From Candidatus Wukongarchaeum yapensis (GTDB lineage Archaea > Asgardarchaeota > Wukongarchaeia > Wukongarchaeales > Wukongarchaeaceae): DNA of 16,280 nucleotides. Of the stretch, positions 1-12,878 are shown in pieces. How positions within the stretch are numbered: position 1 is the first letter of the stretch; each line of letters begins with the position of its first letter. The notes below the pieces were generated by a model. It did not search any database and was not told the origin of the DNA. It worked only from the letters and a program-made list of their open reading frames with translations. A program made the translations under genes and the position numbers. The DNA is taken from the NCBI GenBank assembly GCA_016840425.1, contig JAEOSI010000026.1, positions 1 through 16,280 on the forward strand, read 5' to 3'.

Positions 1-278
1 AATTCTTGGGACTTCCTTAAAGACAAGTAAAAAGTTAAAGATTTTAAGTATGATCCGCTGTTTAAAATGGAGGTCTTTTTTAAACCGAATTTTGGACATA
101 AAATAACTTATAAACCATCAATCTAACTCATTTTTTATATTTATTTCCTCATTTAAATGATTTAAGTAACCTAATGAACTACTAAAACTATCCCGATATA
201 ATCATTCATTGCGCAAAATGTAGATTTTACGCAATAATTCTTAATTCTCTACTTCTATCTTCTAACTAGTTTCTGCAG

Positions 279-584
279 TTATTTTTTTTCCTTTCTTTTT
301 GCCTTTGATCGAGGAAAAATGTATTCTTCTATTTTTATTGTTCGTAGGCAAGCAGCTTCGTAGTTGTATCTTTCTTGTTCTAGGAGATTTGCAACTTTTT
401 CTGTGAAGATTGGGTAGAGGTTCTCTATTTTCTCCTTTTCTAGGGCTTCATAGAGGAAGTTGGCTGCGAATTGAGGATCGTTACAGGCCATTTCGAAGGT
501 AAAGTGTATTATCATTTTCTCGTTTTTGTAGATTTTGTTTTTGTCTTTATACTTGTTTTTAACCAATTTTTCTCCCTCCAGCAC
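279..584 (-). CDS. Hypothetical protein, divergent from the recombinase
   Basis: 101-aa ORF with protein-like K/E-rich composition and no recognisable motif; GTG start uncertain. Confidence 0.45.
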   Translation of the reverse strand: MLEGEKLVKNKYKDKNKIYKNEKMIIHFTFEMACNDPQFAANFLYEALEKEKIENLYPIFTEKVANLLEQERYNYEAACLRTIKIEEYIFPRSKAKRKEKK

Positions 585-716
585 CCATTGAGGGAAGATT
601 TTTTTTCTTTATTTAATTATTAGAGCTTATTTCTACTAAAATGATTTGGTAGAATAGTTTGTAGATATGGTAGTTTATTGCCGATTACAAAATTTTCTTA
701 CTTTTCAAGAATATAT

Positions 717-759
717 TTTTGCTAAATTTTTATGGCTGTTTTAACAAAAAGAGAGGTGT
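717..759 (+). repeat. Motif A, copy 1 (upstream of recombinase)
   Basis: TTTTGCTAAATTTTTATGGCTGTTTTAACAAAAAGAGAGGTGT aligns with 11505-11550 and 10058-10093. Confidence 0.7.
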
Positions 760-768
760 TTTTGAGTT

Positions 769-810
769 TTTGTAGAAATTATAATTTAAGTTTGTAAAAA
801 ATTATACAAA
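769..810. promoter_or_regulatory. Candidate promoter/operator of the recombinase
   Basis: Near-direct repeat TTTGTAGAAATTATA (769-783) / TTTGTAAAAAATTATA (791-806) and imperfect palindrome TTTGTA-N8-TACAAA (791-810), ending 16 bp before the TTG start. Confidence 0.3.
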
Positions 811-826
811 ATGTTGGGAAAAAATT

Positions 827-1402
827 TTGAAAAATAAACCGAGAAAGCTTCCAAAATACCTTGAGCTTGAGGAAATTAGTCGACTTTTAAGCGTTGTAGA
901 TAGGGTTAGAGATTTGCTTATTATTAGGCTTATGGTGTTTGCTGGCCTAAGGGTTAGTGAGGTGGCTGGTTTGAAGATAAGTGATGTTAATTTTGCGGAA
1001 GGGGAGCTTAGAGTGAGTTGGGAGACGGCTAAAAGGCAGAAAGAGAGAATGGTGGTGATTGATGAGGAAACGGGTCGTTTGCTTTATCAGTTTGCTCTTA
1101 ATAAAGGGTTGAAGGGGGGTGATTTCTTTTTCGCGAGTCGGAAAAGTGAGAGGATAAGTACTAGGCAGATTCAGTATATGGTTAAGAATTATGCTGTGAA
1201 GGCTGGTTTGCCTGATTGGGTTACTCCTCATAAGTTGCGGCATACGTTTGCTACGCATCAATTGCGTGGTGGTATGGATTTGCGTGTTCTTCAAGATAGT
1301 TTGGGTCATGATCATATTAGTACGACGCAAATTTATACGCATGTGGATATGAGGGAGAAGAAGCGGCAGTTTGTTGATTTGTCTAAAAAATTAAATCAAT
1401 GA
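827..1402 (+). CDS. Tyrosine recombinase/integrase (XerC/D/XerA-like catalytic domain only, 191 aa)
   Basis: Full catalytic set: AGLRVSE (Arg), AKRQK (Lys), HKLRH (HxxR), LGH (His), TTQIY (Tyr). Begins with the LPKYL segment that normally starts the catalytic domain; no N-terminal core-binding domain. Confidence 0.95.
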   Translation: MKNKPRKLPKYLELEEISRLLSVVDRVRDLLIIRLMVFAGLRVSEVAGLKISDVNFAEGELRVSWETAKRQKERMVVIDEETGRLLYQFALNKGLKGGDFFFASRKSERISTRQIQYMVKNYAVKAGLPDWVTPHKLRHTFATHQLRGGMDLRVLQDSLGHDHISTTQIYTHVDMREKKRQFVDLSKKLNQ

Positions 1403-1880
1403 AAAGCAATGGATGAAAGGTATAAAGATAAGGATTATAAGACAAATATAGGTATACGTAAGGTAAGAGGCGGTGGTAAAGCCAAAGGATTCGTTACGGG
1501 AACTTAGAGAATTAGGGAAATTTTTTTCAGACAAACTTCTGCAAGAAATAAAAAAACCATGAGAACTGGAACTAGACGGGGTTTTATAATAGTTTTAACG
1601 GATTGGATCCGATAACTAGCAATGTTATTTATAGCCTAATAGGAGGAATAAATAGCAAACCGTTGAAAACTATGGAAAAACATGTATTAAGGGACTTTAC
1701 GATATTATTGTTTTTATTACTTTTTTTTTGTAATAAAGGTAGTATAACCTGCCTATTACTCTAGGAAGGATTCCCTAGGCAATTTTACATACGTAATTAG
1801 GAGCCTTTATAAGGGCGTATAGAGGCATTTTGAAATGTGGTGGTTTTTTTCATCATCACGAATTTAGGAGATGAAAGCAA

Positions 1881-2135
1881 ATGAGTATGGAAAGTTTTAT
1901 CTCTTCCTGCCTTCAGGGAAGATTAGTCGACGTATACTGCGGAGATGGAGCTTGGTTTCACGGCGAAGTCGTCACCTGTGTAGATGGAGTACTAGGTCTT
2001 AAAAGCGGTATTACTTACACTAATGTTGCAGTAGAGAAGATCATAGGTATTTGGGAAACTTGCAAAGAAGAGTACGATAAAAGAAATTTAGCCGAAATAA
2101 AAGCAGGCCATATTACTCATAGTACTCATTTATAA
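1881..2135 (+). CDS. Small MM0924-like (Sm/LSm-like beta) protein
   Basis: MESFISSCLQGRLVDVYCG...GEVVTCVDGVLGL...VAVEKIIGIW resembles archaeal MM0924-family proteins as recalled; AGGAG RBS upstream. Confidence 0.65.
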   Translation: MSMESFISSCLQGRLVDVYCGDGAWFHGEVVTCVDGVLGLKSGITYTNVAVEKIIGIWETCKEEYDKRNLAEIKAGHITHSTHL

Positions 2136-2187
2136 GGAAAATCTGAGAAATACCCTAATCACAAATAAATTATAGGAATAATGTGCG

Positions 2188-2261
2188 GGTGGTGGGTGGT
2201 TTAATTGAAAATTCATCTCAGCCATCTGTTAAACCATCCATCACCTACCACTATTTTTTTT
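2188..2261 (+). terminator. 17-bp stem-loop followed by T8 tract
   Basis: GGTGGTGGGTGGTTTAA (2188-2204) pairs with TTAAACCATCCATCACC (2229-2245): 15 Watson-Crick + 2 G-T pairs, 24-nt loop, T8 at 2254-2261, downstream of the 1881-2135 gene. Confidence 0.55.
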
Positions 2262-2316
2262 GACTGCTAAGTTTTTAAGTTTTTTTTGCTTTTTATTTTT
2301 TCTTTATGGTTTTTTT

Positions 2317-2478
2317 GGTGTACCGTTTTTAAAGCGAATGTCACTCATGCTTAAGAAAGTGTAGTTTCCAAAACATGTGGACTATTTATACTACACTCCT
2401 GCAGAATATGAGAGAATCAAGGAAGAATCCTCAGTTATAGCAGATGTCTTAGAAAATTCGTTGGAAATTACAGTATAA
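2317..2478 (+). pseudogene. C-terminal remnant of a minimal nucleotidyltransferase (MNT antitoxin-like) gene
   Basis: Reads GVPFLKRMSLMLKKV*FPKHVDYLYYTPAEYERIKEESSVIADVLENSLEITV*; the VD-x-x-x-YTP-x-E-Y/F pattern is typical of archaeal MNT C-termini. In-frame TAG at 2362-2364; N-terminal half absent. Confidence 0.6.
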
Positions 2479-2530
2479 AATTCTTAAGAATTAGGAAACA
2501 TTAGAACAAATTAATCTTAGTGGTTTAGGT

Positions 2531-2759
2531 TTATTCGACAGGAAGTTCTTTGCGTTTTTTAATCGGGATATTTATCATGGTTTCTTCGATATTCTCTAGG
2601 GGTACTCTTAGGCTCATGTCTAAAATTTCTATCCCTATAACTTTTCCATCTTTGGTGTAATCAATGATTATACCGTCTGCTATTTCTTTACTGATATCAT
2701 ATTTCCCTTCTTGAAATACTATATAAAATGTGTCTACCTCTGGATCATAACTTATTCAT
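2531..2759 (-). pseudogene. DUF2283-family protein, frameshifted right after the start codon
   Basis: ISYDPEVDTFYIVFQEGKYDISKEIADGIIIDYTKDGKVIGIEILD matches the DUF2283 pattern (YDPEVD...IDYD..G..IGIEIL). ATG at 2759-2757 with GAGAGGGA RBS is out of frame with the body (ATG-A-ATA-AGT). Not in the ORF track. Confidence 0.85.
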
Positions 2760-2818
2760 TTTTTATTGCTTCCCTCTCTATACTTCTTTTTGCTTGCAAG
2801 ATATGCGGTTATGACTAT

Positions 2819-3322
2819 ATGAGAGTTCTCAACTTGTTTGAAAACAACCCGAATCATCTTGATGCGAATGTCTATTGCAGATCAAGGGATGATAGATCAC
2901 AGAAAAGAATAGAAAGAGAAGCAGAGGCTTTTGAATAGATCGCAAAATTGAAGGAAGAGGGGAAGCTCATTATTATAAGCTCAGACTATGTTAAGATGGA
3001 ATTGATGGAAATAGAAGATGAGGAAAAACGAGAAGACGTAATGAATTTTGAGAGGGTGTTGAGTGATCTGAACTTCGAGCATAATAACGAAGTGAAGCTT
3101 TTGGCTTCTGAAATAGTAGAAAAGTGTAACATAGGCATACTTGACGCGTTACATATCTCCGCCGCTGTCTTAACTAATGCAGAGTTTTTCCTGACATGCG
3201 ATGAAGGCATTACTGTCAAAAGGATTCGTGTAACGGAAGTATTAAGAGGTAAAGGGCAGTTCATTAATATATTCAACCCCATTGATTACTTAAAATCTGA
3301 ATGGAGGATAATTATTAGATGA
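2819..3322 (+). pseudogene. PIN-domain (VapC-like) toxin interrupted by an in-frame TAG
   Basis: ORFs 2711-2938 and 2948-3322 are in the same frame, separated by TAG 2936-2938. Joined they read HLDANVY...DDRSQKRIEREAEA...LDALHISAA...FFLTCD, with the PIN acidic motifs. Start 2819 or 2834. Confidence 0.8.
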
Positions 3323-3549
3323 GTGAGATTAAGAATGAGAGAGGAGTCATTTCCCTTGTAGGGAAGACTATAAGGATCCCCTTTGATGCCCTAGTGGAGG
3401 AACTTGGTTTAGAAAGGGCAATTCGATTCATCAGTAAAGTTAAGAAGAATTACGGTAATTCTGTCATTGAATTAAGGGAGAAAACCAGAGACTTGACGAT
3501 GGAAGAGATTGAGAAAAGAATCAAAATGTGGAAGGAGCAAGGGCGATAA
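3319..3549 (+). CDS. Probable antitoxin partner of the PIN gene
   Basis: 76 aa, ATGA overlap with the PIN stop; ALVEELGLERAIRFI...LTMEEI resembles small proteins typically encoded downstream of this PIN subfamily. Confidence 0.6.
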   Translation: MSEIKNERGVISLVGKTIRIPFDALVEELGLERAIRFISKVKKNYGNSVIELREKTRDLTMEEIEKRIKMWKEQGR

Positions 3550-3595
3550 CACGATAAGTAAGAACCATTGTTGCTTGTTAAATATACGTAAAACT

Positions 3596-3628
3596 GTTAA
3601 ACCTGTTGTAAAACTGGTTCGTTTTTAT
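3596..3628 (+). repeat. Direct repeat C, left copy (flanks AMP/RuBisCO cluster)
   Basis: GTTAAACCTGTTGTAAAACTGGTTCGTTTTTAT versus GTTAAACCTATTTGTAAAACTTGTTAGTTTTTTAT at 7562-7596. Confidence 0.65.
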
Positions 3629-3762
3629 GTTTTTGTTCATTAAGATAACATATTTAGCATCCGTGTTTTTGCCTGCTTGTTTTCTTGTTTTGGTACTATC
3701 TTACCGAAAATTTATTGTGCATTCATTAACTTAAGAGATTATTGTTCTTATGGTGAGAAATA

Positions 3763-4683
3763 TTGTTAGAACAAATCAGAAAAATTGCCATGAAAATAAA
3801 GCAGCTCGAAGTTCAAGGTGCTAGGAATGTTGCTATTGCTGCTATAAAAGCCTTAGAAAGTTTAGCAAAAGAGACAAAAGCAAAAAATAAGGAGGAATTT
3901 TTAAACGAGGTTTTAAAGGCAAAAGAGATCCTTTTTTCTTCAAGAGAGACTGAACCGCTTATGAGAAATGCCGTTAGATGGATAATAAGCCAGTTGGAAA
4001 AGAGCGACTATGAAAAAGTTCAAAAGCTAGCAGAAATAGTTTCTTCGAGTTCTCAAAGTTTTCTTAAAAATCTTGAAGATTCGAGGGAGAAAATTGCTAA
4101 AATAGGGGCTAAAAGAATTAGGGATAATTCGGTAATATTTACCCATTGTCACTCTTCTACGGTCACTTATTTGTTGAAAAAAGCAAAGCAAGAAGGGAAA
4201 TCTTTTGAAGTCATCTGTACTGAAACTAGGCCTGTCTTTCAGGGTAGAATAACGGTTAAAGAGATGTTAGAACTAGGCGTGGAAACAACTTTGATCGTAG
4301 ATTCGGCTGCTCGCTTTTTTATGAATCAAGCTGATTTAGTAATTGTTGGAGCGGATGCTATAACATCTGAGGGAAATGTCATAAATAAGATTGGAACGAG
4401 CATGGTAGCTCTTGTGGCTCAGGAGGCTAGAACGCCCTTCTATGTGGCTTCTGAACTTTTAAAGTTTGATCCAGAGACAATGTATGGAGATTACGAAAAA
4501 ATAGAAGAGAGATATCCTGAAGAGGTTTGGGAAAATCCTCCGGAAAAGTTGACTATTAGAAACCCAGCTTTTGATGTGATAAGGAGAGGCTTTATTCACG
4601 GCATAATATGTGAATTGGGAATATTTTCTCCTCATTCAATAACGGAGGTTATGCATAGAGTATATCCGTGGATTTTCGAGTGA
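3763..4683 (+). CDS. e2b2: Ribose-1,5-bisphosphate isomerase (eIF-2B alpha/beta/delta family)
   Basis: THCHSSTV (catalytic Cys), ETRP, GADAI (catalytic Asp), NKIGT, NPAFD motifs; 306 aa; adjacent to RuBisCO and AMP phosphorylase; GGTGA RBS. Confidence 0.93.
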   Translation: MLEQIRKIAMKIKQLEVQGARNVAIAAIKALESLAKETKAKNKEEFLNEVLKAKEILFSSRETEPLMRNAVRWIISQLEKSDYEKVQKLAEIVSSSSQSFLKNLEDSREKIAKIGAKRIRDNSVIFTHCHSSTVTYLLKKAKQEGKSFEVICTETRPVFQGRITVKEMLELGVETTLIVDSAARFFMNQADLVIVGADAITSEGNVINKIGTSMVALVAQEARTPFYVASELLKFDPETMYGDYEKIEERYPEEVWENPPEKLTIRNPAFDVIRRGFIHGIICELGIFSPHSITEVMHRVYPWIFE

Positions 4684-4696
4684 CGTGGCCAGATCG

Positions 4697-5926
4697 TTAA
4701 TCTTGTTCTTTCCATGTTTGTAATGCATTTTCAAGTTCTTTGTGTGTTTTAGCATATTCACTTAGTGGTATGTTTTTTAGGGTCGCGTCTACTGCTTGTC
4801 GCATAGCTTTTGATCCCGAAATTGTCCCTTCTTTGTGACCATGAATGCCTCCTCCTGCCTGAATGATGAAATCTGTTCCGAAAAATTTTATTAGAGCTGG
4901 AATGAGGCCTGGATGTAAACCACCTGAAGCAACAGGGAAAGTGCGTTTTAGCCCGTTCATTTCTTCTTTTAAAGCTTCAATGTTTTCTGATACTTCTTTT
5001 CTTGTTTCGAACATTTTTCCGACACCTGTTCCTACGTGGAGTTGGTCTACGCCGATTATTCTGGCTATTTTTGCTATTACCTGCATAGAAATTCCGTGCT
5101 TAGGGTCTTTAGTGAATGCTGCGTGTCCTGCTCTATGTGCGTGAATTACAAGGTCAAAATCTTCTTCACAGAGTGTTTGTAAGGCTGAAAAACCGCATGT
5201 TAGGATGTCGACCATGATGTATTCTCCGCCGTGGTTGAGGACAAATTCAGCCCTTTTCAGCATTTTTTTCGTTTCAGCTGTAACGTTAGCCATGTATACT
5301 TTTCTTTCTCCGGTTTCTTCTTCGGCTTTATCTCTACTCTCTAGGGTTTTTATGACACGGTCTTCGAAGGGATTAAACCTTTGGTTGCTCAGGTTCTCAT
5401 CATCTTTTACTATGTCGCATCCTCCAAGCCAGGCTTCGTATGCGACTTCTGCATGATCCGTGGTTTTCAACCCTAGCTTGGGTTTGATTATTGTTCCTAC
5501 TAAGGGCCGAGCATTAACTTTTAAAAGCTTGCGAATGCCTTCTATGCCGTATTTTGGACCCTTGAAGTTTTTTATGAGCTGTGGCGGAAAATAGATATCG
5601 TTTAGCCGTAGGTTTTTCAAAGTTTTTAGTCCAAAGACATTTCCTGCAATACTGCTTAATATGTTGGGCATATTTTCCTCTTCAAAAAGTTCGATTGGAT
5701 AGGCAATTTTTACGTCGTTTCCTTTTATGCTAAAGACGTGGGCAGCGAGTTTTTTAACATAATGTTTTATGGTTGTAAGTTCTGTCCAGGTTCCGATTGA
5801 ACTTTCGGCAGCGACTCCTCCCGCAATTTCTTTTATACTGGCATCTTCAGGTTCAACGTAAAATTTGCAAATAATATCAGTTTCTTCAGGTTTATATTTT
5901 AAATTCACAAAGTCGATATATTTCAA
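4697..5926 (-). CDS. rbcL: RuBisCO large subunit, form III (archaeal type)
   Basis: AAESSIGTW, GNVFG, KPKLG, GCDIVKDDE (carbamylated Lys), HRAGH, QLHVGT-GVGK (loop-6 Lys), SGGLHPG, QAGGGIHGH: the active-site motifs of a bona fide RuBisCO rather than a form IV RLP; 409 aa. Confidence 0.97.
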   Translation of the reverse strand: MKYIDFVNLKYKPEETDIICKFYVEPEDASIKEIAGGVAAESSIGTWTELTTIKHYVKKLAAHVFSIKGNDVKIAYPIELFEEENMPNILSSIAGNVFGLKTLKNLRLNDIYFPPQLIKNFKGPKYGIEGIRKLLKVNARPLVGTIIKPKLGLKTTDHAEVAYEAWLGGCDIVKDDENLSNQRFNPFEDRVIKTLESRDKAEEETGERKVYMANVTAETKKMLKRAEFVLNHGGEYIMVDILTCGFSALQTLCEEDFDLVIHAHRAGHAAFTKDPKHGISMQVIAKIARIIGVDQLHVGTGVGKMFETRKEVSENIEALKEEMNGLKRTFPVASGGLHPGLIPALIKFFGTDFIIQAGGGIHGHKEGTISGSKAMRQAVDATLKNIPLSEYAKTHKELENALQTWKEQD

Positions 5927-6008
5927 ACAAACTAACCCTCTAGCTTTTTAATAGTAATATAGCAATGAAATTTCTTTATATCATTTAATTATTATAGTTG
6001 TTTGAGAA
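5927..6008. promoter_or_regulatory. Compact bidirectional promoter region between rbcL and AMP phosphorylase
   Basis: 82-bp very AT-rich spacer between divergent starts with several TTTA[A/T]A-like boxes; GAGGG RBS for rbcL. Confidence 0.5.
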
Positions 6009-7562
6009 GTGAACCCTATGAAACTCAAGGCTAGGATCCTAGATATACAAACAGGCGGGAAAAGAATAGCTATTTTGGACGATGAAACTGCAAGTTTTAT
6101 GGGGATACATTCTTCTGACCGGGTGGAAATAACTTTTAAAGGCAAGTCTTTAGTTGCTATTGTTAACATAGCTAGCAACTTTCCGCGTAGCTATGTGGGG
6201 CTTTTCCAAGAAGTTTCAACAAAACTGGGTGTAAAAAAGGGGGAAACGGTTGATGTGCGAGGGGCAGAAAGACCTGAGGGGCTTGAGTATATACGAGCCA
6301 AAGTACGCGGTGAAAGGTTACAAGAAAACGAGATAAAAACTATTGTTGAAGACGTAGTGAAACAACATCTAAGCGATATGGAAATAGCATCCTTTGTGAC
6401 AGCTCTCTATATTCACGAATTAAAAATGGATGAAATTGAAGCTTTATCGAAGGCAATGGTGCAAACAGGTAACATATTAAATTTTGATAAAACCCCAGTT
6501 TTAGACAAACACAGCATAGGCGGGGTTCCTGGCGACAAAACAACAATTCTAGTGGTTCCAATCATTGCTAGTGCAGGCTTTGTCATACCTAAAACTTCAT
6601 CAAGGGCGGTAACTTCTCCGGCTGGAACTGCAGACCGAGTCGAAACATTATGTCCGGTGAACTTGACCGTTGAAGAGATAAAAGAGGTGATTAAGAAAAC
6701 AAACGGGTGCATGGTTTGGGGTGGTGCTTTAGAACTGGCCCCAGCTGACGATATTTTTATTCAAATAGAATATCCTCTAGGAATTGATCCTTTACTTCTT
6801 CCATCAATCATGAGCAAGAAAAAATCTGTAGGGGCTACCCACGTAATTATAGATATACCAACCGGAATAGAAGCTAAAGTAAAAACAAGAGGCGATGCAC
6901 GCACTCTTGCATACGATTTTATAGATTTGGGAAAAAGATTAGGAATAAACGTTCAATGTGCAGTAACTTTTGGAGAACAGCCTCTAGGGCAAACTATAGG
7001 GCCAGCTCTAGAAGCAAAAGAAGCTTTATCTACCATTATGGGTAACGGTCCAGCAGACCTTAGAGAGAAAGTCATAAGCATTGCAGGCGTACTATTCGAA
7101 ATGATTGGTATCAAAAATGGGAAAGAAAAAGCATTAAACCTTTTAAAATCTGGAAAAGCTGAAGAAAAACTCAGAGAAATAATTGAAGCACAAGGGGGAG
7201 ATCCAAAAATAAAACCCGAGGATGTTAAAGTTGGAGATAAAAAAGAAGTGATCAGAACAAGAGAAGAAGGCAGAATTTTATGGATTAATAACAAAAAAAT
7301 TGCTCAAGTTGCAAAGGAAGCAGGGGCACCAAAAGAAAAGGGAGCCGGAGTCAAACTTATGTTAAAACTTGGAGAATATGCTAGAAAGGATGAAGTTCTC
7401 TTCGAAATATATGCTGAAAGAAGTTCAAAATTAGAAGCAGCCGTACAATTGGCAAAGAATCTCCAGCCAGTAAGATTGAGCAAAAAGCTAGAAGAAAGGA
7501 TGTTAATGGATAGAATTCCGAAAAAAACTGTAAGTAAAAAAATATTCATGCTAGAAAGATAG
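6009..7562 (+). CDS. deoA: AMP phosphorylase (thymidine phosphorylase family with N-terminal extension)
   Basis: DKHSIGGVPGDKTT, PKTSSRAVTSPAGTAD, GGALELAPADD, GIGPALEA-like motif, AGAPKEKGAGV; ~85-aa N-terminal extension typical of AMP phosphorylases. Start may be ATG 6018. Confidence 0.96.
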   Translation: MNPMKLKARILDIQTGGKRIAILDDETASFMGIHSSDRVEITFKGKSLVAIVNIASNFPRSYVGLFQEVSTKLGVKKGETVDVRGAERPEGLEYIRAKVRGERLQENEIKTIVEDVVKQHLSDMEIASFVTALYIHELKMDEIEALSKAMVQTGNILNFDKTPVLDKHSIGGVPGDKTTILVVPIIASAGFVIPKTSSRAVTSPAGTADRVETLCPVNLTVEEIKEVIKKTNGCMVWGGALELAPADDIFIQIEYPLGIDPLLLPSIMSKKKSVGATHVIIDIPTGIEAKVKTRGDARTLAYDFIDLGKRLGINVQCAVTFGEQPLGQTIGPALEAKEALSTIMGNGPADLREKVISIAGVLFEMIGIKNGKEKALNLLKSGKAEEKLREIIEAQGGDPKIKPEDVKVGDKKEVIRTREEGRILWINNKKIAQVAKEAGAPKEKGAGVKLMLKLGEYARKDEVLFEIYAERSSKLEAAVQLAKNLQPVRLSKKLEERMLMDRIPKKTVSKKIFMLER

Positions 7563-7596
7563 TTAAACCTATTTGTAAAACTTGTTAGTTTTTTAT
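7562..7596 (+). repeat. Direct repeat C, right copy
   Basis: Begins on the last base of the AMP phosphorylase stop codon; matches 3596-3628. Confidence 0.65.
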
Positions 7597-7696
7597 AATT
7601 AATGAAGGGTCTTTTAGAATCTTTTAAGTAATTATAGTTGATGTAACCTGTTTTTTTCTTAAATCTTGTAAATGGGAGAAAAAAATTTTTGTGAAA

Positions 7697-7839
7697 TGGT
7701 GGTAGGGATTTGCGTGTTCTTCAACATATTTTGGGTCATGATCATATTAGTACAACGCAAATTTACTTGCCGTGGATATGAGGGAGAAGAAGCGGCAGTT
7801 TGTTGATTTGTCTAAAAAATTGAATCGGTGAAAGGGAAG
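7697..7839 (+). pseudogene. Orphan 3' fragment of the tyrosine recombinase, copy 2
   Basis: Aligns to 1267-1402; ATG changed to AGG, 1-bp deletion near 7771, TGA at 7829-7831. Not in the ORF track. Confidence 0.95.
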
Positions 7840-7906
7840 AGGTAAAATTTTCCAAAACCTATATTTTCTCGAGCAATTCAATTAATTTTTTCTTTGATAT
7901 ATTAAT

Positions 7907-8800
7907 TCATTCATTGTTAATTAGTTTTTTATCAGAAATTGCATTAATTGTGAACTGTTGTATATCGGGGATTTTTTCCTTTAACATTTTTTGGATATTT
8001 GACCGAATACGATCTACTTCTTGCATAGTCATTTCTCCTGGAACTTCGATCATCATTTCTCCTTGAAGCAGTGGTCCTGTACGTCTTAGACGAACTATGT
8101 GGGCAGTTTTTACTCCCTCTGTATTCTCAGCTATATTTTTAATAATCGGTCGTTGACTAATACAAGACATATCACAGGCATCAACCAGAACATAGCTGCT
8201 TTCTTTGATAGATGCAAAACCGATGCTTAGTATCATGGTAGCTATTATAAATCCTATAATTGCATCTGCGATTAAATAGCCATAATTAGCTAATATTAAT
8301 GCGATTACGGTTAGAAGGGATGCTGTGCCGTCTTTTACAGTATTAAAAACTTCTAGTTTTAATGATTGGAGTTTGCTTTTTTTCCCTTCTTGATATTTTA
8401 TTATTCCTAAAGCTATAGCAACTATTCCTGCGATTAGAGCGACTATTGCTCCGATTAACGGTGCTTCTATTTCATCGGGATCTTTAAATTGAAGGTAAGA
8501 TCTATACCCTATATATGTTGCTAGAAAAACCATGATAATTGCTGCGATGATTGATGCTAAACTTTCTACTTTATAATAACCGTAATGAAACTTATCATCT
8601 GCAGGTTTTTTAAAAAACTTTATTCCAACCCATACAACGCTGGATACAAATCCATCTCCTATACAATCTATTCCATTTGCGGTTAATGCTACGCTTTTAG
8701 AAAAACTTGTGCCCAATAATACCTGCAATATCCCTATCCCGATTAGAAATACTGCTGTGAACTTTGCCATGTTCTCAGCATTACCTGTCATAGAACTCAT
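7907..8800 (-). CDS. Cation diffusion facilitator (CDF) family transporter
   Basis: Six hydrophobic segments, SVALTANGIDCIGD, KKPADDKFHYGYYKVESLA signature, C-terminal cytoplasmic domain (VRLRRTGP...IEVPGEMTMQEVD). Confidence 0.92.
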   Translation of the reverse strand: MSSMTGNAENMAKFTAVFLIGIGILQVLLGTSFSKSVALTANGIDCIGDGFVSSVVWVGIKFFKKPADDKFHYGYYKVESLASIIAAIIMVFLATYIGYRSYLQFKDPDEIEAPLIGAIVALIAGIVAIALGIIKYQEGKKSKLQSLKLEVFNTVKDGTASLLTVIALILANYGYLIADAIIGFIIATMILSIGFASIKESSYVLVDACDMSCISQRPIIKNIAENTEGVKTAHIVRLRRTGPLLQGEMMIEVPGEMTMQEVDRIRSNIQKMLKEKIPDIQQFTINAISDKKLINNE

Positions 8801-9041
8801 TTATATACCTCTAAGCCAAAATATGAGTTTAATAAATTTTCTAGAAAAACCAACGCTAGCAAAATTTAGGCAAAGTACAAACTATTCATATTATAATCTT
8901 ATGACACGCCTTTAGATCATGATATATTACAACTTTATATGTTTTTATAAATGATTTTTATTGTCAATACAAAGATAGTAAACTGGAAAACATTAAATGA
9001 TGAAGAAAATCTATTTAACTAAAGGTAGAAGAAAAGTGAAA

Positions 9042-9240
9042 TAAGGTGTTCTGAATAAGTATAAGCCCGTAAGCCCATTAATTTCTTCAAAAAGAGAGCA
9101 GCTCCTAAATTTGGAGAGGGGGTACTACAAGTGAAATGGTGATAAAAGATATTGATTTAAAATAGGTTTTTTCTTCTTTTTTAGGAAAAAAGTATGTGAA
9201 CCATTAAAGCGTTTTAAGCAAGTTTATTTTTCTATTAACG
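9042..9240 (+). repeat. Repeat B, copy 1 (~200 bp, non-coding)
   Basis: About 80% identical by eye to 11825-12035; lies directly upstream of the nitroreductase. Confidence 0.9.
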
Positions 9241-9252
9241 GGTATAATTGGG

Positions 9253-10035
9253 GTGATTTTTTTGTCTTTGAAAAATGCTGTTATTGATAGTTTGTTGAAT
9301 CATAGGTCTGTTAGAAGGTTTAAAGATGAGCCTATTGAGCCTGAGGTTCTTGAAATGTTGCTTAAATCGGGGTTGCGGGCTGCGTCGGCTGGTAATCTTC
9401 AGTCTTATTCGTTGATTGTTGTTGATGATCGGGAGAAGAAGGAAGAGCTTTCTAGGGCTTGTGGTGGTCATCAAGATTTTATTGCTGATGCTGCGGTTAA
9501 TATTGCAGCGGTTGTTGATCAGTTCCGATTTAAAAAGTGGGTTGAGTTGAATAAAGGGCATTTTCACGCTGATTATGCTATAACTCTTTTTATTGGTTTT
9601 TGGGATGCTATTATTGCTCTTCATAACATTGTTGTAGCTGCAGAAAGTATTGGTTTGGGTACTTGTTATGTTGGTAATTTTTTGTCAGTTGATATCCAGA
9701 GTTTGTTTGGTACGCCGGATTATGTTGCTCCTGCGGGTTTGGTTAGTATTGGTTATCCTGATGAGGAGCCTGAGCTTCGTCCTAGGTTGCCTCTTGAGGC
9801 TGTTGTTCATAGGAATAGTTATCGGGTTTATTCTGATGAGGAGATTAGGAGTTTGTATCGGGTGATGGATGATAGGTGGAAGTCTTTTTCTGAAGAGGGT
9901 AGGAAGCGGTTTGTGGAGAGTGGTGTTTTGAATGTGGCTCAGTATGTTACTTTGATGCATTATACTGAGGAATTTATTCGTTCTGAGAGTGAGAAACTTC
10001 TTCAAAATATCAAGAAAGCAAAATTTAAGCTATAG
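9253..10035 (+). CDS. NfsA/Frp-family nitroreductase (flavin oxidoreductase)
   Basis: HRSVRRFKDEPI, ASAGNLQSYSLIV, DAIIALHNIVVAAESIGLGTCYVG, LRPRLPLEAVVHRNSY motifs; 260 aa; GGGGTG RBS-like element at the start. Confidence 0.93.
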   Translation: MIFLSLKNAVIDSLLNHRSVRRFKDEPIEPEVLEMLLKSGLRAASAGNLQSYSLIVVDDREKKEELSRACGGHQDFIADAAVNIAAVVDQFRFKKWVELNKGHFHADYAITLFIGFWDAIIALHNIVVAAESIGLGTCYVGNFLSVDIQSLFGTPDYVAPAGLVSIGYPDEEPELRPRLPLEAVVHRNSYRVYSDEEIRSLYRVMDDRWKSFSEEGRKRFVESGVLNVAQYVTLMHYTEEFIRSESEKLLQNIKKAKFKL

Positions 10036-10057
10036 TCTTGATAATTTGGTAATCAGA

Positions 10058-10093
10058 TTTTTGCGAAATTTTTAGGTGATCATTTTAATAAAG
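10058..10093 (+). repeat. Motif A, copy downstream of the nitroreductase
   Basis: TTTTTGCGAAATTTTTAGGTGATCATTTTAATAAAG aligns with 11505-11541 and 717-751. Confidence 0.65.
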
Positions 10094-10255
10094 TGTTATT
10101 AATCCCGTAATAGGTAATTTTCAAGGGACGACCAAGAAAAGATTGGGTAATTACTCAAGAAGAGATTAGGGAAGATATCGAAGGTATTGTTTTTTATTTT
10201 GTTTTTTAGAGTGTTGGGTACAGTTTTGCTGTTTCTTTTGTTTTTTGGTTGTCTG

Positions 10256-11215
10256 TTATTGCTTTTCTTCTTTGGTTTTGTTTTTTGTGGTGTTTTTTTG
10301 TTGTTTTTGCTCTCCTTTTTTTGTGGGTGTTTTCGCGGTAGTGTGTTTTGTTTGTTCGTTCTGTTGTTGTGTGGGGGTTTGGTTCGTTTTTTTTGCGGCT
10401 TCTTTCCTTACAAGAGAAATCGCTTTTATATTTATACTTTCCAAGTATTTTGTGATATATTCTAGAGGAAGACCGATTAAGTCACATAATTCTTTTATCT
10501 TTGTATTTAGAGTGTCTGTTTTTTCTCCATTGTCCGTCACTTTATATAGCATACCAGCTTGAATATAATTATCAATTGCTAGTACTATGTCTTTTTTTGT
10601 TTTTTCGATGTCAATAGCTTTCCTATAAAACTTTTCAGCTGCTTCAAGCAATATTTTGCTTTCTAATTCTCCATTTTCGCCTTTTTCATAGTTTTGAACT
10701 GCATGTTTATATACTTCTAACGCTTCTCTCGGATCTTCAATTCCTGCTGCTTTTTTTCTAAATTGATCAGCAGAGTCAGTCCAGCATGCTTTGCTCAGTT
10801 CTTCGTCCTCGCCTTGTGATGCATATTCTGAAGCTTTTGCTAATTTCTCTTCTGCAGAATCTGGGTCTTCCATTTTTTTTGCTTCTGCTCTTAAATTTTT
10901 TGCGGATTCTATAAACTTCTTATGAGCCTCTTTCATAGCTTTTTCAGACTCGGATTGTTTACCGATTTGTTCATAGATTTCTGAAGCTTTTTTATATATC
11001 TTTAAGGCAGCAACGGGGTCTTCATTTGATTTTGCGCTATCTCTAAGCAATTTTGCAGCTTTTGTTAAACAACTATTTCCATCTTTTGGGCTATCGTTTT
11101 TATTATAACAATCAGCTGCCTCTTTATACATTTTAACAGCTGTGGTCAGATCTTCCTTTTCTAGTTCTTTTGCTTCTTTTTCTAATGTCTTACACTCTTC
11201 AGCCAAATCTCCCAA
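10256..11215 (-). CDS. Alpha-helical repeat (TPR/SNAP-like) protein with low-complexity C-terminal tail
   Basis: Repeats starting EDLTTA/EDPVAA/EDPDSA/EDPREA/KDIVLA at residues 21, 65, 116, 160, 208, with an A-x-x-x-Y-x-x-A-x-x-x-Y pattern; K/Q/T/N-rich tail. GGAG RBS. Confidence 0.8.
   Translation of the reverse strand: MGDLAEECKTLEKEAKELEKEDLTTAVKMYKEAADCYNKNDSPKDGNSCLTKAAKLLRDSAKSNEDPVAALKIYKKASEIYEQIGKQSESEKAMKEAHKKFIESAKNLRAEAKKMEDPDSAEEKLAKASEYASQGEDEELSKACWTDSADQFRKKAAGIEDPREALEVYKHAVQNYEKGENGELESKILLEAAEKFYRKAIDIEKTKKDIVLAIDNYIQAGMLYKVTDNGEKTDTLNTKIKELCDLIGLPLEYITKYLESINIKAISLVRKEAAKKTNQTPTQQQNEQTKHTTAKTPTKKGEQKQQKNTTKNKTKEEKQ
10259..10409. repeat. Low-complexity T/G tract (151 nt, a single A on the + strand)
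   Basis: Only A is at 10340; encodes the tail of the 319-aa protein on the - strand. Confidence 0.9.
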
Positions 11216-11504
11216 CTCCAGCTATATTTTTCAGGATTCGTAAGTTTATTTGTATGCAGCTTAATCTGAATTCTCAAGTAATACTTCTACTACATACTAA
11301 AAAAATATATCGGAGAAAATGGGAAAAGAAGGTGATTATCGAGAAAGGATTTGATAAAAAATCGTTGATGATGTTATTTGGCGTATACTCGATTGTATGA
11401 GCTCTATATTGAAACTTTTTTTTTCGAAAATTGTGGAAATTAATCGATATAAACGTCAATGAAAAAAGAAATGTGGTATTCCTATTTAAAAGAAGTTTAT
11501 GTAG

Positions 11505-11550
11505 TTTTGCAAAATTTTTAGTGGATCATTTTAACAAAAAGCGGGGTTGT
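11505..11550 (+). repeat. Motif A, copy fused to recombinase fragment copy 3
   Basis: TTTTGCAAAATTTTTAGTGGATCATTTTAACAAAAAGCGGGGTTGT aligns to 717-759 and runs directly into the int 3' fragment. Confidence 0.75.
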
Positions 11551-11687
11551 ATGGATTTGCGTGTTTTACAAGATAGTCTTGGTCATGATCATATTAGTAC
11601 GACACAAATTTATTTACACGTAGATATGGGGGAGAAGAAGCGGCAGTTTGTTGATCTTTCTAAAAAATTAAATCGGTGAAAGGGAAG
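11545..11687 (+). pseudogene. Orphan 3' fragment of the tyrosine recombinase, copy 3 (open 42-codon frame from ATG 11551)
   Basis: 114/129 nt identical to 1274-1402; MDLRVLQDSLGHDHISTTQIYLHVDMGEKKRQFVDLSKKLNR retains LGH and the Tyr nucleophile. Confidence 0.95.
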
Positions 11688-11824
11688 GTATAGGAAAATA
11701 GAAAATAATACTCTCTCAGCGAACTGCCAAGGCGCGAACGGTATCTCCTGCCATTCTGGATGTGAAGGGAGTAAATGTTTGAAGTAGAGTCGAAACATGC
11801 TGTATCTACTCCGTTCCACTAAGT

Positions 11825-12035
11825 TAAGGTGGTCCGAATAGTTACAAGCCCGTACCCCACGTACTTCCTCAAAAAGAGAGCCCCCCTCCTTAAATTTGGA
11901 GAGACGGCGTTACCACAAGTGAAATGCCGACAAAAAATAAAAGATATTGATTTAAAATATAATTTTTCTTCTTTTTTAGGAAAAAAGTATGAGAACCATT
12001 GAAGCGTTCTAAACAAGTTCATGTTTCTATCAACG
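11825..12035 (+). repeat. Repeat B, copy 2
   Basis: Direct repeat of 9042-9240; here upstream of the asparaginase gene. Confidence 0.9.
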
Positions 12036-12057
12036 TTTGAAATCTTGGGGTGTTTTT

Positions 12058-12546
12058 ATGAGAATTTTGTTTATTCAGACTGGTGGTTCGATAGATAAGG
12101 ATTACCCGCGAGTGGTAAAGGGTTATGGGTTTGAGATTGGAGAGCCTGCTGTTGAAAGAATATTGGGTAGGGTTAGTCTTAATTTTAAATATGAAATATT
12201 ATCTGTTCTTAGGAAAGATAGTTTAGATATTACTGATGAGGATAGGGAGAAGATTTATGATGTTTGTGTAAAAGCGGATAGTGATAAGATTATAATCACT
12301 CATGGAACTGATACGATGATTGAAACTGCCAAAAAATTGAGCAGTATTAAGGATAAAATTATAGTTTTAACAGGCGCAATGAGACCTGAAAGGTTTAGGG
12401 ATTCAGATGCGGATTTTAATTTGGGAACGGCGATTGGAGGGATAAATATTCTTGAAAATGGTGTTTATATAGCGATGAATGGTAGGATTTGTTCGTGGAA
12501 TAAGGTTAAAAGAGATTTAGAAACAGGTCAATTTGTTGAAAAATAG
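12058..12546 (+). CDS. Short single-domain L-asparaginase-family protein
   Basis: QTGGSIDK, KDSLDITD, ITHGTDTM, VLTGAMRP, SDADFNLG, GVYIAMNG motifs; ATG 12058 preceded by GGGGTG; 162 aa. Confidence 0.9.
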   Translation: MRILFIQTGGSIDKDYPRVVKGYGFEIGEPAVERILGRVSLNFKYEILSVLRKDSLDITDEDREKIYDVCVKADSDKIIITHGTDTMIETAKKLSSIKDKIIVLTGAMRPERFRDSDADFNLGTAIGGINILENGVYIAMNGRICSWNKVKRDLETGQFVEK

Positions 12547-12631: not shown

Positions 12632-12878
12632 TATAATTGGGGTGATTTTTTTGTCTATGAGAAATGCTGTTATTGATGGTTTGTTGAATCATAGGTCTGT
12701 TAGAAGGTTTAAAGATGAGGCTATTGAGCCTGAGGTTCTTGAAATGTTGCTTAAAGTAGGGATTCGGGCTCCTTCGGCTGGTAATCTTCAGTCTTATTCT
12801 TTGATTGTTGTTGATGATTGGGAGAAGAAGGAAGAACTTGCTAAGGCTTGTAGTGATCAAGAAAGCAAAATTTAAGCT
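12632..12878 (+). pseudogene. Internally deleted copy of the nitroreductase gene
   Basis: 12632-12862 aligns to 9243-9476 and 12856-12878 aligns to 10009-10031; the join is the shared heptamer ATCAAGA. Confidence 0.95.

Follow-up and report, generated by a model that had tools for sequence, protein, structure and literature searches.

In Thermococcus kodakarensis, the adenosine monophosphate (AMP) pathway employs an AMP phosphorylase (AMPpase; TK0353), a ribose-1,5-bisphosphate (R15P) isomerase (TK0185) and a ribulose-1,5-bisphosphate (RuBP) carboxylase/oxygenase (RuBisCO; TK2290), a pathway described by Sato et al. (2007) and by Aono et al. (2015), both as cited in PMC6389311. The corresponding genes, deoA, e2b2 and rbcL, are clustered in members of the Candidate Phyla Radiation (CPR) and of DPANN, where RuBisCO lies in the middle and has been laterally transferred (Wrighton 2016; Jaffe et al. 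2019, PMC6389311), whereas deoA and e2b2 are largely vertical and only RuBisCO moves (PMC6389311); AMP-pathway genes have also been published for Bathyarchaeia (PMC8407382). Here we analyse a cluster of this kind in a 16,280-bp contig of the Asgard archaeon Candidatus Wukongarchaeum yapensis (JAEOSI010000026.1; C192), which was studied in its entirety and is referred to below as the window. It belongs to a metagenome-assembled genome (MAG; G000) of 2.16 Mb, 277 contigs and 38% GC that is 92% complete, with 3.3% contamination. The evidence makes it probable that an apparently functional AMP-salvage cluster was acquired in one old lateral transfer, and that the copies of a ~34-bp repeat found at its two ends are members of a dispersed family and not recombination scars. 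Both the pathway and the cluster type are known, and what is new is a further case in which a whole module moved from one phylum to another; the literature searched yielded no account of an Asgard genome with a Bathyarchaeia-type trio, which is not proof of novelty.

As in T. kodakarensis, all three enzymes are encoded here, Thermococcus and Pyrococcus proteins are their nearest solved relatives and no phosphoribulokinase (PRK) was found in G000; unlike there, the genes form one 3.8-kb cluster, those of T. kodakarensis being unlinked, to judge from their locus tags. The description of that organism's genes as unclustered by an earlier, sequence-only reading of the window (hereafter the original prediction) holds, and clustering is the rule in Bathyarchaeia. 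The locus resembles those of the CPR and DPANN in having three genes on one fragment, RuBisCO between the other two and a laterally transferred RuBisCO, but differs from them in that all three genes and the putative e2b2 promoter are of one foreign affiliation. With the Bathyarchaeia genes it shares the cluster type, collinearity and 70-80% identity, the difference being an Asgard host, from a class of only three species genomes, and Asgard-specific flanks.

The three open reading frames (ORFs) are uninterrupted and cover their Pfam models end to end, and their reading bears out what had been claimed of an intact trio with spacers of 13 and 82 bp; the strand of RuBisCO, unstated in that claim, is the minus strand, so that rbcL is convergent with e2b2 and divergent from deoA. 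RuBisCO is full length (PF02788 positions 1-119 of 120, PF00016 positions 1-299 of 299), has 2cwx and 1geh as its best relatives in the PDB, and carries KPK, GxDxxKDDE, HRA, GK, SGG and GGG motifs, whose catalytic meaning is established in the RuBisCO literature, all aligned to Pyrococcus horikoshii 2cwx, as befits a true RuBisCO and not a RuBisCO-like protein. The best solved relatives of the e2b2 product are the R15P isomerases 5yfj and 3a11, at 2.7e-68 (MtnA 1t9k, 2e-35), with which it aligns the Cys of THCHS and the Asp of GAD, residues whose roles are known from work on Tk-R15Pi. Residues 4-491 of the deoA product align with T. kodakarensis AMPpase 4ga5, from residue 1 of the latter (5.5e-143); ordinary pyrimidine nucleoside phosphorylases align only from residue ~93.

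A search for the PRK family (PF00485) gave no match in the 92%-complete G000 and was positive in 11 of 14 control genomes, no RuBisCO small subunit is present among the window ORFs scanned, and G000 holds no second copy of e2b2, rbcL or deoA, the original prediction having asked whether a second, core copy of the pathway exists: each gene is single. Because the nearest solved relatives are enzymes of the pathway, PRK is unmatched and the genes are single copies, it is sound to read the locus, as far as sequence goes, as a complete and apparently functional salvage module leading from AMP through R15P and RuBP to 3-phosphoglycerate. In such a module, AMPpase would convert AMP to R15P, the e2b2-type isomerase would convert R15P to RuBP, and the form III RuBisCO would turn RuBP, CO2 and water into two 3-phosphoglycerates, these activities being predicted for all members of the trio.

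The likeness of the cluster to Bathyarchaeia DNA is continuous and sharply bounded. Single blastn high-scoring segment pairs extend over 3697-7561 (locus L024) and 3702-7562 (L025, L026), none lies outside 3697-7562, and the similarity ends at the deoA stop codon. At its other end, the similarity includes the 66 nt 5' of e2b2, where the window and the Bathyarchaeia loci have in common a cgAAA-TTTATAG element reminiscent of a B recognition element (BRE) and TATA box, a GGTG and a TTG start; in the window these correspond to a BRE-like CCGAAA (3704-3709), a TATA-like ATTTATTG (3710-3717), GGTGA (3752-3756) and the TTG at 3763, and the shared BRE/TATA-like elements probably act as the e2b2 promoter. 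When rbcL was scanned against one genome per species (185,579 species) and the best 80 loci were taken, almost all of these were labelled Bathyarchaeia or Bathyarchaeota, with 70-79% tblastn identity, and they included three complete chromosomes. Most of the 80 have the arrangement of the window (deoA<- rbcL-> <-e2b2), and in Bathyarchaeia loci the deoA/rbcL spacer measures 75-97 bp and the rbcL/e2b2 spacer ~20 bp.

At the protein level, the window is 80% (e2b2), 80% (rbcL) and 75% (deoA) identical to L024; its identity to the group formed by L022-L026 and L077 is 78.5/78.7/73.5% across the trio, compared to 74.6/70.4/65.9% between those six and other Bathyarchaeia. The best identities to Asgard sequences are 66% for rbcL (400 genomes), 49% for deoA (251) and 51% for e2b2 (151). 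None of the three genes was found in the sole congener (G001, 87% complete), and a genome of the same order (G002) contains distant copies only, 41-51% identical to those of the window. Bathyarchaeia-type rbcL is distributed over at least 77 Bathyarchaeia species, as against 1 of 400 Asgard species.

Other loci depart from this pattern in ways of their own. An Asgard family (f12, genus g12; L002, L108-L118) has a RuBisCO 64-66% identical to that of the window, and its deoA (45%) and e2b2 (38-41%) are of ordinary Asgard types and located on other contigs; here RuBisCO alone may have been exchanged between the two phyla, in a separate event. In a 1.4-Mb single-contig Asgard genome (G003:C1:1158944-1163725; L137, L165; genus g3), rbcL, e2b2 and deoA stand in one co-oriented row, whose order and orientation are unlike those of the Bathyarchaeia-type cluster. 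Two Bathyarchaeia-labelled loci (L029, L082) combine the usual RuBisCO with an adjacent deoA (40-47%) that differs in type and strand, as does e2b2 in L082; within Bathyarchaeia the cluster has thus been rebuilt at least once.

Protein trees were obtained from quick IQ-TREE searches (LG+C20) of the best Bathyarchaeia and best Asgard homologues. In all three, the window falls into one group with L022-L026 and L077, and its splits from Asgard-type sequences have support of 99-100 in the Shimodaira-Hasegawa-like approximate likelihood ratio test (SH-aLRT); the clade with support of 99 in the rbcL tree also takes in the 12 rows of Asgard family f12, as sister to the Bathyarchaeia group. The comparison of the three trees with the species tree, a check proposed together with the original prediction, hence places all three proteins with Bathyarchaeia, in conflict with host taxonomy, and the assignment of the window trio to the Bathyarchaeia type is firm. 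Nesting of the window inside Bathyarchaeia, and hence a direction of transfer from Bathyarchaeia to Asgard, is favoured but not proven. Several points weigh against it: the homologues in the trees were chosen by similarity to the query; approximately unbiased (AU) tests, which covered e2b2 and deoA, do not reject a window branch basal to the Bathyarchaeia sampled for either e2b2 (p 0.415) or deoA (p 0.385, with two aberrant rows left free); and absence of the trio from an 87%-complete G001 is not proof. As the AU tests leave the basal position, the direction rests mainly on distribution. A first deoA AU result (p 2e-6) was set aside, since two Bathyarchaeia-labelled rows whose deoA is of a different type confounded it.

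A basal window branch and a host-like codon composition would both suit a reverse or vertical history, in which the cluster is native to the Asgard lineage and the ancestor of Bathyarchaeia got it from such a lineage. This is unlikely in view of the distribution described above, with its complete Bathyarchaeia chromosomes on one side and a single Asgard species on the other; moreover, none of the genes was seen in the congener and only distant copies in G002, the window is no farther from Bathyarchaeia sequences than those are from each other, and the free trees nest it beside L022-L026. That the trio of a co-occurring Bathyarchaeon was merely put into an Asgard MAG by assembly or binning is scarcely credible. 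The MAG is fragmented, with the contamination noted above, Bathyarchaeia live in the same habitat, and the rbcL bins receive extra depth from other organisms; against this stand the contigs that independently bridge both junctions, the otherwise flat depth, the presence of a genus-specific motif on both sides of the block within one contig, the matches of G001 to this same contig, the host-like codon composition and the low identity, ~75%, of even the nearest Bathyarchaeia DNA.

The evidence on junctions comes from public sequencing runs, 20 of which (X1-X20, belonging to 13 marine-sediment, mangrove and marsh studies, none on record as RNA) hold the stretch; joints, depth and spanning were judged on the Logan contigs of four (X1, X2, X7 and X11), those of X7 and X11 leaving parts of the window without contig cover (e.g. 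2716-3258), which were excluded from the evidence. Contigs of X1 and X2, two runs that may be non-independent, span 2624-3702, 3673-4902 and 6426-7801 with 0-1 differences, and in the marsh run X11 a ~98%-identical strain yields a contig over 6279-7768, through the right repeat and into an integrase remnant. Depth is flat over the window, except in bins to which rbcL, deoA and related sequences of other organisms map. G001 matches the same contig at 10317-11315 and 15380-15580, with 90-94% identity. The contig is not a chimera, because contigs from other metagenomes bridge both junctions. GC at third codon positions (GC3) is 0.29-0.33 in the trio and 0.35+-0.05 in the genome, whereas the six nearest Bathyarchaeia loci have values of 0.31-0.47, most of them at 0.37-0.44; the base composition of the trio is therefore not foreign, both GC and GC3 lying in the host range. 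Because codon GC is host-like, the transfer appears to be old and ameliorated: the block is physically part of the Asgard genome and has resided in it for a time sufficient for amelioration. As for the host genome itself, it contains a profilin-family match above the Pfam cut-off, which none of 14 control genomes does.

The preferred account is then that the whole 3.87-kb cluster would have passed once, and long ago, from a sediment Bathyarchaeon to this Asgard lineage, its codon composition having since become host-like. If so, it is a clean case of a three-gene salvage module crossing, together with its promoter, between archaeal phyla found together in marine and estuarine sediments, and it bears on metabolic reconstructions of Asgard ancestors, a RuBisCO carried by an Asgard genome being not necessarily ancestral. 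The features on which this account and the following sections draw are collected in Table 1.

Table 1 Features of the 16,280-bp window, ordered by position
Feature	Positions	Strand	Basis or remark
Tyrosine-recombinase ORF, 191 aa; catalytic domain only, without N-terminal domain	827-1402	+	Pfam Phage_integrase 2e-40
Degenerate half-copy of the motif (GTTAAATATACGTAAAACT), in tandem with the full left copy	3576-3595	+	Sequence reading
Left motif copy: 20-nt head (3596-3615), then G+T-rich tail	3596-3640	+	Pattern and sequence reading
Block of continuous ~75% nucleotide identity to Bathyarchaeia e2b2-rbcL-deoA; putatively transferred unit	3697-7562		blastn
Putative native e2b2 promoter/start region	3704-3765	+	Alignment with 10 Bathyarchaeia loci
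Ribose-1,5-bisphosphate isomerase (e2b2 family)	3763-4683	+	Pfam IF-2B 1.4e-80; TTG start
Form III RuBisCO large subunit	4697-5926	-	Pfam RuBisCO_large_N and RuBisCO_large
Divergent rbcL/deoA spacer, 82 bp, A+T-rich	5927-6008		ATTAAATGATATAAA in common with L024
AMP phosphorylase (deoA type, extra N-terminal domain)	6009-7562	+	Pfam Glycos_trans_3N, Glycos_transf_3, PYNP_C
Right motif copy: 1-nt insertion in head, decayed outer stem	7562-7597	+	Pattern and sequence reading
Integrase 3'-end remnant, frameshifted, 91% identical to 1267-1404	7694-7844	+	
Second integrase 3'-end remnant, same 5' breakpoint as the first	11541-11691	+	

The original prediction had drawn attention to a ~34-bp direct repeat around the trio, and this repeat is real, at 3596-3630 and from 7562; its tandem half-unit is also present, with TGTTAAA at 3576 and 3595 and GTAAAACTG at 3588 and 3608. 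In the window the repeat reads GTTAAACCT(N2-3)TGTAAAACT, and the pattern GTTAAACCTN{2,3}TGTAAAACT has exactly two window matches (3596-3615 and 7562-7582, both on the plus strand), compared to none in 200 shuffles. The left copy starts 47 nt past the stop of a co-oriented small helix-turn-helix (HTH) ORF (3319-3549) and the right one on the G of the deoA TAG stop (7560-7562); the direct orientation of the two copies follows from each sitting just past the stop of a plus-strand gene.

Both copies are members of a genus-specific intergenic family that seems REP/MITE-like (repetitive extragenic palindrome/miniature inverted-repeat transposable element) in behaviour. The head, GTTAAACCTATTGTAAAACT, occurs in G000 in 46 ungapped copies with at most three mismatches on 33 contigs, to which the gapped right copy of the window is added (~47 in all); 20 shuffled heads gave 0-6 matches even with up to four mismatches. 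With at most two mismatches, there are 35 heads in G000, 9 in G001 and 0-2 in each of 119 other Asgard genomes, the reversed pattern giving 0 in both G000 and G001 and at most 3 in other genomes under the same threshold. Although 83% of G000 is ORF, 43 of the 47 copies are intergenic, and ~2% of intergenic gaps hold one; copies are clumped, with two or more on 10 contigs, and often located at contig ends. The genes beside the heads are unrelated and include housekeeping ones (S6e, Nep1, ClC channel, UbiD), no gene family recurring beside the motif except HEAT-repeat paralogues. Two copies in G001 occupy sites orthologous to those of G000. No copy was found in 848 kb of Bathyarchaeia loci or in the viral contigs searched. 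Rfam has no family matching the motif elements or the window, the only two tRNAs found being on contigs C168 and C224; the window contains no tRNA.

The internal organization of the family is uneven. The head is followed by at least 25 nt of T/G-rich sequence, and the best-preserved copies fold as AAACCTA-ttgt-AAAACT / AGTTTT-TAGGTTT followed by T-runs; 32% of copies fold better than shuffled tails (z<-1), and conservation is far higher in the 5' arm of the hairpin, which is the head, than in the 3' arm. Past ~45 nt, at least four different tails of 100-270 nt are each common to a subset of copies. Those of the window are solo heads, in which homology to the family ends after 34-43 nt (40-43 nt for the left copy). 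Convergent pairs of heads 357-431 bp apart (C168 2341-2697, C4 6562-6992 and G001 C10 183-599; L185, L181 and L191, respectively) look MITE-like, with tail modules that differ between the two ends. Larger inverted pairs of 1.3-1.9 kb exist on C194, C217 and C224, that on C224 enclosing a tRNA gene. By eye, no target-site duplication was seen at the motif copies, and there is no associated transposase among their neighbours.

Compared to known REP, MITE and terminator-like hairpins, the family is similar in its dozens of short, lineage-specific intergenic copies, its imperfect palindrome with T-runs and its inverted pairs 360-430 bp apart; it is unlike them in the much stronger conservation of the head relative to the 3' arm, in the several 100-270-nt tails that follow the same head, in the lack of a detected target-site duplication or transposase and in showing no orientation bias to upstream genes. 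The motif family could serve as transcript-end signals: both window copies and ~12 others lie within 80 nt after a stop codon, with about as many facing a gene start. This terminator role is unproven, because orientation relative to upstream genes is balanced (21 same, 21 opposite) and the share of copies that outdo shuffled tails in folding is only about one third, two points that count against the interpretation of the family offered here. A role as the operator of a regulon was rejected, the genes behind promoter-side copies being unrelated (ClC channel, GH125, Nep1, a metallo-beta-lactamase-fold protein, GH43, a URO-D-like protein, UbiD, S6e and others), and so was a motif-mediated inversion between G000 C59 and G001 C120, whose second breakpoint is without an inverted motif.

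From the repeats, the original prediction had concluded that the trio is a mobile cassette moved by site-specific recombination, with the two copies as attL/attR attachment (att) scars. Its claim of acquisition as one unit is supported, and that of scars is not. The cassette reading has in its favour the foreignness of the block, the two direct motif copies within 0-60 nt of it and the nearby integrase fragments, with metagenome contigs that skip such fragments. Nevertheless it is very unlikely: the ~47 copies stand beside ordinary genes, the motif is retained by the congener, where no trio was seen, and neither Bathyarchaeia loci nor viral contigs contain it. The window copies are also not each other's nearest relatives, ranking 36th and 17th of 46 (the ranking of the right copy was made with a window offset by 2 nt, a change of rank being unlikely). 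Integrase homologues are present on two G000 contigs only, C192 and C133, and no recombinase recurs beside the motif; a motif-integrase link was accordingly rejected. Genome-wide copies, ordinary neighbours, lack of a link to integrases and non-closest partners therefore leave the att reading unsupported; what the genome-wide search returned is the common, terminator-like intergenic motif that the prediction itself had named as speaking against it.

An empty-site allele, in which a single repeat joins ~3628 to ~7597, had been suggested as a check, and no contig with this joint was seen in X1, X2, X7 or X11, a weak negative because contigs cannot reveal rare variants. Two candidates for related alleles were rejected. 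One, 1399->3586, adds 35 letters at the joint and could be taken as an integrase-before-trio allele, but is a short composite consisting of 18 nt like the integrase end, 35 nt and then ACGTAAAACTGTTAAACC; a close variant is found on C92 at ~520-580 (L189), where 18 nt identical to the end of the integrase gene (TCTAAAAAATTAAATCAA) are followed by 35 nt and the half-motif/motif junction ACGTAAAACTGTTAAACC. Variants of the C92 composite occur at genome-like depth in X1, X2 and X7, and the 1399->3586 contigs are attributed to a paralogous locus of this kind, the C92 variant differing from them at 3 of the 35 nt. A loose end at 3683, 14 nt from the block boundary, is a chance match and not an empty-site or alternative-cargo allele: the contigs concerned (L210, L211) have only an 18-nt exact word in common with the window and are otherwise unrelated coding DNA. 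In likeness to att/attC cassettes, the locus shows direct repeats around a foreign block beside tyrosine-recombinase fragments; unlike them, it has genome-wide copies, housekeeping neighbours and no integrase link, and no cassette array, intact integrase or empty site was found. The start of the head, GTTAAAC, fits the loose attC core, GTTRRRY, a lead only.

What dispersed membership explains only loosely is how tightly host motif and foreign block abut, the left tail running to ~3697 and the right head beginning at 7562; a rough, post-hoc estimate gives a chance on the order of 0.05-1% that a motif copy is located at both ends of a given block. Such abutment would be expected if the motif were an insertion or recombination hot spot, through MITE-like ends or a host-factor site, with the block captured between two copies and the bracket causal without integrase att sites. 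The clumping of copies (10 contigs with two or more), the convergent MITE-like pairs 357-431 bp apart and the frequent position at contig ends point the same way; the reading is nevertheless unlikely, as no target-site duplication was seen by eye and no associated transposase was found, two copies are stably orthologous between species and those of the window are direct instead of inverted. A particular form of it, even more of a long shot, would have the head mark sites of DNA uptake or rearrangement that are read by a host factor, the RuBisCO block having been captured between two of them with no need for an integron-type integrase; if true, this would amount to a cassette-capture mechanism in Asgard archaea without such an enzyme. 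If, as we favour, the copies are dispersed family members, they illustrate how genus-specific intergenic repeats can be mistaken for att sites, and the family may merit study as a transcript-end or DNA-binding element.

The surroundings of the cluster are fairly described as a recombinase island, given their integrase remnants and segmental duplications, and the phrase "amid pseudogenes" used in the original prediction is also fair, considering the truncated integrase ORF, two integrase remnants, an asparaginase fragment and a 5' piece of a nitroreductase gene. The last ~140 nt of the recombinase gene exist in three copies (1264-1404, 7694-7844 and 11541-11691) that are 88-91% identical and have one 5' breakpoint. 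Each of the two remnants is skipped in metagenome contigs: that at 7694-7844 by a joint 7650->7891 in one X7 Logan contig (depth 5.5, sides of ~31 nt), and that at 11541-11691 by a joint 11381->11799 with 28 replacement letters, in X1, X2, X7 and X11 (depth 3.7-6.6). These 3' remnants may be small mobile fragments or att-like sites inside the integrase gene; no mechanistic connection between the integrase fragments and the trio was found. In G001, nothing corresponds to the DNA immediately flanking the cluster (1-3576 and 7600-10190), except for a 70% match to 322-598, and of the cation diffusion facilitator (CDF) transporter G001 has only 24%-identical paralogues.

Further from the cluster, a segmental duplication relates 9042-9470 to 11825-12057 and 12632-12859, with 79-92% identity, its second copy being split by the asparaginase N-terminal fragment (12037-12546); a fragment repeats the 5' end of the nitroreductase (9253-). 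The left motif is immediately preceded by a toxin-antitoxin-like pair, in which a PIN-domain ORF (2948-3322) and the small 76-aa HTH ORF (3319-3549) overlap. On the minus strand, a tetratricopeptide repeat (TPR) protein (10256-11215) matches Pfam SNAP (soluble NSF attachment protein) at 4.4e-10, and the stretch 10672-11315 has 90% nucleotide identity to the contig end of congener G001:C122.

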